DNA of 31,603 bases, taken from the IMG/VR virus record IMGVR_UViG_2740892231_000003. One strand, 5' to 3'. A program made the position numbers. Within the stretch, counting starts at the first letter, position 1. Every line of letters begins with the position of its first letter. Below are positions 9,001 to 12,000 of the stretch, piece by piece. The DNA is from a virus. Lineage: Duplodnaviria > Heunggongvirae > Uroviricota > Caudoviricetes.

Positions 9001-12000
9001 TCTGCTGGCGTCCGGTGAAGACCTGGCATCACAGGGCTGGCGCTATTATCACAAACCGGCGAGCGGAGACAGTGTTAATAAAAACATCGCTGAGGCTGTG
9101 GTCAGTGATGAGGGTGCCACCGGTGGTAAGGCCCTGCAACTGAACAAACCGGAAAGCCACATCTGGTTTCTGGAGCATGATGCCGCCGGGCANNNNNNNN
9201 NNGGCTACGGGAGGTAAGGCCCTGCAACTGAACAAACCGGAAAGCCACATCTGGTTTCTGGAGCATGATGCCGCCGGGCAGGGGGCAGAGTTGCTGAAGA
9301 AAGGCGGACGTGTGAGCGTGCGGTTTAAGGTGCCGGGCGCACTGGTGCCGAATCAGTTTGCCCTGGGTATTTACTGGCAGTTGTCGTCCCTGCCGGAGGG
9401 AGTGACGCTGTCAGAGGAAGGCAACGACATGCTGATGTCCTTCTTCCTGCAGACGGATGCGACGAACCTGAACGCGATGTACCACAAGAAGCAGAATGCG
9501 AAGCTGGATACGTTCGGGGTCTTTGATAACGGATGGCACACACTGGCTTTTGAGTTTGCCGGAAACAACAGCATTCAGGTGACGCCGGTACTGGATGAGA
9601 AACGGGGTACGCCGTTCACACTGGTGAAATCTCCGGCATCAGGGGCGGCGGACAAACTGCAACTGACAGGCATATCAAAGGCGGCGACATATACGCTGCT
9701 GATTGACAGTGTGAAGGTGGAAGTGAACAACGCGGACGGCGCGGCATGATAAAAAAACCGCCAGTCGCGGGAATATCGCTGGCGGTAAGTACCCATGTAC
9801 CTTTGTAATGAATGGATGTTTTTACATCGGTTATTTTTTAATGAATTGCGTTTCTGTTGTCAACATACCAGGCGGGAAGTTTTCAGGACAAAAAATCCAC
9901 CAGTAAGCAAGGGAGGTGCAGTTGCGTGCTTCTGGTGGAAATGGTACGGCTATGAGGTTTTATTGTTATGCATGCCATAATTTTTCTACACAAAAGCAAT
10001 TCTGAATGTCAACACGTTTTATAAGGAATTGTTGTGCACACAGAGTAAATGCACGGGGCTGTCAGTGTAACACTGGCGGCCTTTTTCATGTTGTGAGCTT
10101 CCGGATTGCGGGAGACGGGGTATGTACCAGATGGAAAAAATCACANNNNNNNNNNCCGCCAGAACCTTGAGTCGCGTCTTGATGCAGAAGTGGATGCCAT
10201 TCTGGATGAACTGCTGGGCGCACCGGCAGCTCCGGAGCCGGAAGGCATCGCGGGTGAGGGGAGTGCTTCAGATGGCGGTGAACCCACACCTGACAGCGAC
10301 ATGATGATGTAAGCATGCGCAAGGGACCATCGGTGTGTGCCGGTGGTCTTTATATTGTTGTGAGCTTCCGGATTGCGGGAGACGGGGTATGTACCAGATG
10401 GAAAAAATCACAACAGGTGTGTCATACACCACGTCAGCGGTGGGAACGGGCTACTGGTTCCTGCAGTTGCTGGACAGGGTTTCCCCGTCTCAGTGGGCGG
10501 CAATAGGCGTGCTGGGGAGTCTGCTGTTTGGTCTGCTGACATATCTGACTAACCTGTATTTCAAAATTAAAGAAGACCGGCGTAAGGCGGCCCGGGAAGA
10601 GTAAGCTGATGAGCAGAAAATTCCGCTATGGTTTATCGGCTGCCGTTCTGGCGCTGATTGCCGCAGGGGCTTCTGCGCCTGAAATCCTCGACCAGTTTCT
10701 GGATGAAAAGGAAGGCAACCACACCACGGCATACCGTGATGGTGCGGGTATCTGGACCATCTGCCGAGGTGCCATCATGGTGGATGGTAAGCCTGTGATT
10801 CCTAGCATGAAGCTGTCGAAGGAAAAATGCGACCAGGTTAACGCCATTGAGCGTGATAAGGCGCTGGCATGGGTGGAGAAAAACATCAAAGTGCCACTGA
10901 CTGAACCCCAGAAAGCGGGTATTGCGTCATTCTGTCCTTACAACATTGGCCCCGGTAAGTGTTTCAGCTCAACGTTTTACCGGAAACTGAACGCCGGAGA
11001 CCGTAAAGGCGCATGTGCTGAAATTCGTCGCTGGATATATGACGGTGGTCAGGACTGCCGTATTCGTTCAAACAACTGTTACGGTCAGGTATCCCGTCGT
11101 GACCAGGAGAGCGCGCTGGCGTGCTGGGAAATCGACAGATAAGCAGAATATTTTGCTGAAAAATGAGGTTTGCTCACATGGACGTATAACACGAAATCCT
11201 GCAAATTGGCAAAATGTAAGTGAATAAAGTCAAAACAGTTGTTTAACACTCAGGCACCGTAATGGTGCCTTTGTCATTTCTGCGCATCTCACGCGCATCT
11301 CACAACACAGAACCTTTCAGGATGACCCTTGAGGATACCGGTTTGGCTGTCGGTGCCTTTCTGTGGGCTGGATTCCTGTGAGACAAGGTTCATCACTAAA
11401 AGGAAATAACCGATGAATATGATGACCGTGCCGTTTCACGGCAACTCTCTTTATGTAGTTAACCATAATGGCGAGCCATACGTTCCCATGAAACCTGTCG
11501 TTGCGGGGATGGGGCTGGCCTGGCAATCACAGTTGGCTAAGTTAAGACAGCGTTTTGCGTCAACTATAACGGAAATCGTTATGGTTGCTGAGGATGGGAA
11601 ACAACGCAATATGGTGTCCATGCCACTTCGAAAACTTGCCGGCTGGCTACAAACTATTAATCCCAACAAAGTAAAACCCGAAATCCGCGATAAGGTCATC
11701 CGGTATCAGGAAGAGTGCGACGATGTTCTTTACGAGTACTGGACGAAGGGTTTTGTCGTTAATCCCCGTAAAATGAGCGTGATGGAAGAACTCAACCAGG
11801 CTTGTGCTGACATGAAACGGGATAAAAAACATTGCCAGTGTGTTTGCTACCGGGCTGAATGAGTGGAAACAGGTTAAAGCCGCGCATGTATCAAAAATCC
11901 GTACGCTGGTAAATGAAGCGAATATGCTGATTGATTTTGTCCTGGCTGATACAGGCAAAGGGAAAATAACAAAGGCGGATTGATGGGGTGGCTAATGATA

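Follow-up and report, generated by a model that had tools for sequence, protein, structure and literature searches.

The stretch of DNA analysed here (the window, 31,603 nt) contains a lysis cassette with the order holin, R, ant, a 48-aa ORF and Rz, all on the plus strand. A class II holin (a 71-aa gene within an 89-aa ORF, 10335-10604) is followed by the R endolysin with a Phage_lysozyme domain (10609-11142), the putative antirepressor gene ant with an ORF of 149 aa (11413-11862), a conserved hydrophobic ORF of 48 aa (11983-12129) and the start of the i-spanin gene Rz (12141-12189). Rz is cut by a scaffold linker of ten Ns (N10; 12190-12199), one of 16 in the window, and the ant-bearing contig ends there; Rz is uninterrupted in the related loci L003 and L090. 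The location of ant is that of its family, i.e. between R and Rz and followed by an overlapping 48-aa ORF.

Of interest is the 3' portion of ant. The ORF stops at a TGA (11860-11862), and its product ends in ...DKKHCQCVCYRAE (...MKRDKKHCQCVCYRAE). Upstream of this stop is a run of six A residues (A6, 11824-11829); window positions 11820-11831 read GATAAAAAACAT, and the sequence around 11820, GGGATAAAAAACATT, contains the run. Intact alleles carry five A residues (A5) at this point, with the codons GAT AAA AAC ATT (D K N I), and A6 is the site of a +1 insertion. Residues 139-149 of the window's ant product (KHCQCVCYRAE) are out-of-frame read-through. In the +1 frame, a stop at 11813-11815 is followed by an open stretch that runs from 11816 to a TGA at 11981-11983. 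Within it lies the displaced C-terminal coding segment (11828-11983, plus strand), which consists of 51 codons (NIASVF...ITKAD) and the TGA; NIASVFATGLNEWK is a peptide of this frame. Deletion of one A in silico yields a protein of 189 aa. A preliminary description of the locus had drawn attention to the early stop at 11862, to the open +1 frame leading to the same TGA and to a fused protein of about 190 aa if one A were removed. All of this was borne out; the frame opens already at 11816, and the fused protein has the C-terminus quoted in that description. An open +1 frame of 53 codons is unremarkable in itself, because it has a probability of about 0.08 by chance ((61/64)^53, our own arithmetic); it is homology that decides. 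Might the displaced segment be expressed separately? On inspection of the sequence, no Shine-Dalgarno-like sequence was found at a suitable distance from the GTG at 11840, the potential start of a 47-aa fragment, and separate expression from this codon was therefore judged unlikely.

The 48-aa ORF begins with an ATG that shares bases with the ancestral stop of ant, in the sequence TGATG, and this overlap between the two genes is present in 95 of 100 loci. With the A6 allele, ant now stops 120 nt upstream of the ATG, and any translational coupling between ant and the 48-aa ORF would thereby be lost. Polarity on the 48-aa ORF and Rz is expected to be small, as the 48-aa ORF has its own weak Shine-Dalgarno-like sequence, AAGGCGGA, upstream. 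The ORF (48-49 aa) occurs as 11 full-length protein variants that differ mostly by conservative changes, and a second allele is present in the window at ~12456-12584. It is without annotation in phage 933W (AF125520) and is termed 'hypothetical' in RefSeq; it may represent an unrecognised membrane protein of the lysis cassette. A further observation concerns the related loci L104, L106 and L108 (2868-3420), where a second protein of the Bro network (see below), 183 aa long and with the domains Phage_pRha and ORF11CD3, is encoded just 3' of Rz. Because this gene adjoins Rz, ORF11CD3 (which also forms part of intact Ant, see below) is found twice in one lysis region, attached to different N-terminal domains.

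The window was scaffolded from 17 pieces, with its 16 N10 linkers at 5270, 7728, 9193, 10146, 12190, 13415, 13503 and 13911 in the first half of the set and at 15575, 16246, 28659, 28797, 29204, 30415, 31171 and 31517 in the second. Allelic copies of lambdoid late regions are placed one after another in it (nanS-p and the 48-aa ORF are each present twice, and lysozyme and Rz three times), and gene order across the linkers is untrustworthy. The break at 12189 is at the exact point where two alleles converge on identical sequence. A gene at 631-1578 encodes the Shiga toxin 1 A subunit, which has a RIP domain (E = 6e-38) and the signal peptide MKIIIFRVLTFFFVIFSVNVVA; the gene for the B subunit is expected to follow immediately, at about 1588-1860. 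As stx1 is on a different scaffold piece, with four linkers in between, it cannot be linked to the window's ant. The closed genomes give a continuous view: their A6 prophage has the order Q, methylase, AraC-like regulator, nanS-p, S, R, ant, 48-aa ORF, Rz, ..., terminase, and no stx is found in this prophage of either CP027484.1 or CP027328.1.

What does the frameshift take away? The N-terminal domain P22_AR_N (PF10547) is intact in the 149-aa ORF, at residues 5-113 (155.8 bits, E = 6e-46). A Pfam scan of this ORF gave no match to ORF11CD3; the same scan of the repaired protein, i.e. with one A removed, places ORF11CD3 at residues 122-164, with a score of 27 bits where 25 is the cut-off. Since the second domain appears only after one A is removed, the window's ant is read as a disrupted member of its family. 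The repaired protein gives P22_AR_N and ORF11CD3 only in the Pfam scan, and P22_AR_C is absent. In an alignment of 25 homologues, the residues S142, F144, G147, L148, W151, K152, H158 and L165 are invariant and I140, G145 and K161 nearly so; every one of these positions is 3' of the frameshift. An AlphaFold model of moderate quality (pLDDT 74) consists of an alpha/beta N-terminal domain and then a helical hairpin (helices 123-144 and 149-176). On this model, the frameshift at codon 139 is predicted to cut the first helix of the ORF11CD3 hairpin and to delete the second.

A sequence search of the PDB gave as its best match a designed repeat protein (E = 0.017), and a Foldseek search of the model against the PDB found nothing below E = 0.2; by these searches, no solved structure is related to Ant by sequence or by fold. 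The name 'antirepressor' derives solely from homology of P22_AR_N and is best taken as putative. The label used in the preliminary description says more than the similarity bears out, since the resemblance to P22 Ant is confined to the N-terminal domain.

Intact relatives are plentiful. The 621-nt region around ant is matched at 2539 places across 698 complete genomes of E. coli and also in 258 phage records, among them 933W, VT2-Sakai, BP-4795 and many Stx1 and Stx2 phages; among the matches listed, each spans 620 nt as against 621 in the query. In line with the alignment to intact ant genes that the preliminary description had proposed, a 241-nt alignment of the window with 933W and E. coli HCP4S3_I4 has a single difference, A6 versus A5, the relatives being full length. 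The repaired protein is identical to P0016, a common protein of E. coli that is recorded on about 1000 contigs, and is 99% identical to the Ant protein of phage 933W.

A protein database search found 2581 homologues, and the best 120 of these all carry P22_AR_N and ORF11CD3 in one protein. Nearly all of the 120 are 174-199 aa in length (a few reach 212 aa), with identities of 61-93%, and the genera listed are Escherichia, Salmonella, Photorhabdus, Xenorhabdus, Serratia, Proteus, Providencia, Arsenophonus, Sodalis and Hamiltonella. The same two domains are found in 24 relatives from across the Enterobacterales (61-87% identity, 174-195 aa). No clear case of a natural form of ~150 aa with the N-terminal domain only was seen among the 120 listed homologues, and the shorter ones are named 'partial' or are on very short contigs (e.g. 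P0048, with 158 aa on a contig of 476 nt). A common end at 149 aa, which the preliminary description had set out as the contrary expectation, is thus not what homologues display: they end at 174-212 aa and have a conserved C-terminal ORF11CD3.

Is the extra A an error? The suspicion is natural, as the window is a poor scaffold of 17 pieces with N10 linkers and homopolymer indels are a common class of error; the strain would then truly have an intact 189-aa ant, and A6 would be a miscall in sequencing or assembly. The exact 149-aa product is, however, found on 59 contigs (83 index blocks) from four source collections, NCBI, JGI/IMG, ENA and Logan, the last consisting of assemblies built directly from public read sets. 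At least seven accession series of assemblies are represented, along with two closed genomes and a metagenome contig. One of the NCBI entries is EGW95225.1 from E. coli STEC_DG131-3; DG131 has been described as O174:H8 with stx1c and stx2b, of sheep origin. Ten loci were retrieved, namely the closed genome CP027484.1 and the drafts CCQP, BRVW, CCPU, BRWJ, JAHVUA, AEZO, NJZE, JBBUTQ and BRXB, of which the CCPU locus is the window itself (CCPU01000123.1, GCA_000752815.1, 31,603 bp). A second closed genome with A6, CP027328.1, provides an eleventh locus, and A6 also occurs in a contig from IMG/VR and in another from a metagenome. In all, the insertion recurs in 10 or more assemblies besides that of the window.

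All 11 A6 loci, from independent assemblies, are 100% identical to the window over 1380 nt, save for one SNP in one or two loci, with no other indel. For three A6 loci the comparison took in the whole window contig and gave 99.9-100% identity over 1834 nt; CP027484.1 is identical over this length and CP027328.1 differs by one SNP. The nearest A5 haplotype, that of HCP4S3_I4, is 3-5 SNPs away from the A6 haplotype. A random miscall would not be expected to recur on one haplotype across assemblies, projects and assemblers, which argues that A6 is a real allele that arose once. The metagenome contig (OGDF01037101.1), which has the same A6 haplotype, also speaks against an error. The carriers of A6 may be one clone rather than independent isolates.

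Two further observations had favoured a miscall. Of the 2434 copies that the RefSeq complete genomes of E. coli contain, none is an exact match to an A6 80-mer; CP027484.1 and CP027328.1 are absent from this set. In addition, NZ_CP104647.1 (E. coli PNUSAE008406, 5042030-5045110), a RefSeq 'complete genome', shows A6 amid 9-10 obvious single-base indel errors in 3 kb. The haplotype of NZ_CP104647.1 is only 95.6% identical to the window, and this is the sole A6 found on another haplotype. It was considered as a second, independent event and rejected as assembly noise, given the 9-10 indels in 3 kb relative to near-identical loci, four of them inside ant. The indels in this genome are mostly in homopolymers, two of the seven features in the region are annotated as frameshifted, and the pseudogene calls made there are probably sequencing errors.

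The base-level quality of the two closed A6 genomes is uncertain, because both are missing from the RefSeq set and one has a split portal gene: the gene is divided into 166 + 284 aa in CP027484.1 (17570-18935) and is an intact 454 aa in CP027328.1 (17569-18933). The recurrence of A6 on a single haplotype in many assemblies makes an error in the window most improbable, and of the three causes that the preliminary description had offered, sequencing error is the one that this recurrence dismisses and pseudogenising mutation the one that stands.

The third cause offered was a slippage-prone switch. Slippage could toggle ant reversibly, or a programmed +1 slippage could yield both the 149-aa and the 189-aa product. 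The frameshift does sit in a homopolymer, shifts of frame are comparatively easy on Lys AAA codons, and the displaced frame is fully intact, without secondary stops or substitutions relative to the A5 alleles. But the length heterogeneity of the A tract that would accompany a switch, and which the preliminary description had proposed to look for, is absent: exact-pattern scans of IMG/VR found A5 in 86 contigs, A6 in one and neither A4 nor A7. An ON and an OFF form on one haplotype, as in phase variation, did not come to light either. All 11 loci of this haplotype have A6, with the nearest A5 loci 3-8 SNPs away. None of 10 loci that encode the exact repaired protein shares the A6 haplotype (a small sample, 10 of about 1100 A5 index blocks), the closest differing by 5 and 8 SNPs, and an A5 copy on the A6 haplotype was likewise not found among RefSeq complete genomes.

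The homopolymers of contingency loci are typically 7-8 nt or more in length, and efficient transcriptional slippage needs roughly 9, so that a run of 5-6 falls far below both; the long mutable tract of a contingency locus is not present here. A conserved two-frame layout, as in programmed frameshifting, is also lacking, all 120 listed homologues being encoded in a single frame as one protein. The zero frame at the site, GAT AAA AAA CAT, has no X XXY YYZ slippery heptamer, and a +1 rather than a -1 shift is needed. Compared with contingency loci and the dnaX sequence A AAA AAG, the site is alike in that a one-base change in a homopolymer sets the reading frame; it is unlike them in its short tract, the uniform tract length, the unconserved split and the missing in-frame heptamer. 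A reversible switch or recoding site here is extremely unlikely. It is also highly unlikely that low-level +1 slippage on the A run restores a trickle of Ant, or that the 149-aa product is dominant-negative toward the Ants of co-resident prophages. If either were so, one base would suffice to change how late genes or lysis behave in polylysogenic STEC.

As read from the assemblies, A6 is very likely a genuine, heritable +1 insertion (A5 to A6) that arose once and truncates ant in one lambdoid lineage. The proposed sequence of events is simple. A change of the replication-slippage type would have converted A5 to A6 in the ant gene of an S-R-ant-Rz cassette, in one lambdoid prophage lineage, and would then have been inherited unchanged. 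Translation of ant would shift frame at codon 139 and stop at codon 150, and the product would keep P22_AR_N and lose half of the first and all of the second ORF11CD3 helix. Judged from the sequence, the 149-aa protein is probably non-functional or impaired and the insertion inactivating. The A6 allele thus appears to reflect the decay, neutral or mildly deleterious, of a late gene that is accessory to a resident prophage.

Could the truncation instead be functional and selected? An activity of the N-terminal domain on its own might be kept or changed (e.g. to a dominant-negative one), or the lost coupling might retune the 48-aa ORF, the spanin and the timing of lysis. The allele persists in many strains with P22_AR_N intact and without further damage to that domain, and the frameshift uncouples a TGATG overlap that is otherwise so widely kept. 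Against this, the listed homologues offer no clear natural counterpart of ~150 aa, the frameshift removes some of the protein's most conserved residues, and the low variation of the haplotype (0-1 SNP) points to a recent event, which makes persistence a poor guide to selection. Decay also looks to be continuing in one metagenome copy of the A6 haplotype. In this copy, OGDF01037101.1, a further 47-nt deletion (at 840-860) corresponds to window positions 11975-12021; it apparently occurred between short direct repeats (ATAAC) and takes out both the former ant stop and the beginning of the 48-aa ORF. The deletion is either further decay of the A6 lineage or an assembly artefact. On balance a selected truncation is unlikely.

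With decay by a single heritable insertion as the preferred reading, the locus is an ordinary prophage pseudogene, and its product has already been deposited in public databases. Annotators would do well to merge the 149-aa and 47-aa ORFs and to mark them as a single frameshifted pseudogene of the 933W type of ant. The A6 allele is a handy single-event marker for one lambdoid prophage lineage in several STEC assemblies, and the case also teaches that a frameshift in a homopolymer may be genuine even where the scaffold is poor. It touches as well on a broader question: what is the role of a conserved protein with P22_AR_N and ORF11CD3 in a lysis cassette? A literature search found no experimental work on the lysis-cassette ant, and A6 lysogens constitute ready-made mutants.

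How does the gene compare with other antirepressors? P22 Ant shares the N-terminal family P22_AR_N. It differs in that the C-terminal domain of the window gene is ORF11CD3, not P22_AR_C, and in that the window's ant is located in the late lysis operon between R and Rz and not in an immI-type or early immunity region. The Ant of phi24B has in common with the lysis-cassette gene the name 'antirepressor' and a Stx phage as its host genome. The two genes are distinct: the phi24B ant is found upstream of qut, the C-terminal 104 residues of its product resemble P22 Ant, and late genes are expressed with a delay when this ant is deleted (Fogg et al. 2011, PMC3064807). P22_AR_N and ORF11CD3 have also been described as modules of the domain-shuffling Bro network (PMC10111431), a likeness that is defined by domain content only and is silent on mechanism.

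The closest known system is the Ant of phage 933W (AAD25451.1; AF125520, 26854-27423), which has orthologues in VT2-Sakai, BP-4795 and Stx1 and Stx2 phages. Both the gene and its location match those of the window, in the order S, R, ant, Rz; in 933W the gene is annotated as ant, with 189 aa, between R and Rz. The 621-nt region has 99.4% nucleotide identity between the two, and both proteins consist of P22_AR_N and ORF11CD3 once the extra A is removed from the window sequence. The differences are A5 in 933W versus A6 in the window, Ala5 versus Thr5, and 189 versus 149 aa; and whereas the 933W gene and its orthologues are found in Stx phages, the A6 prophage of the two closed genomes is one without stx.
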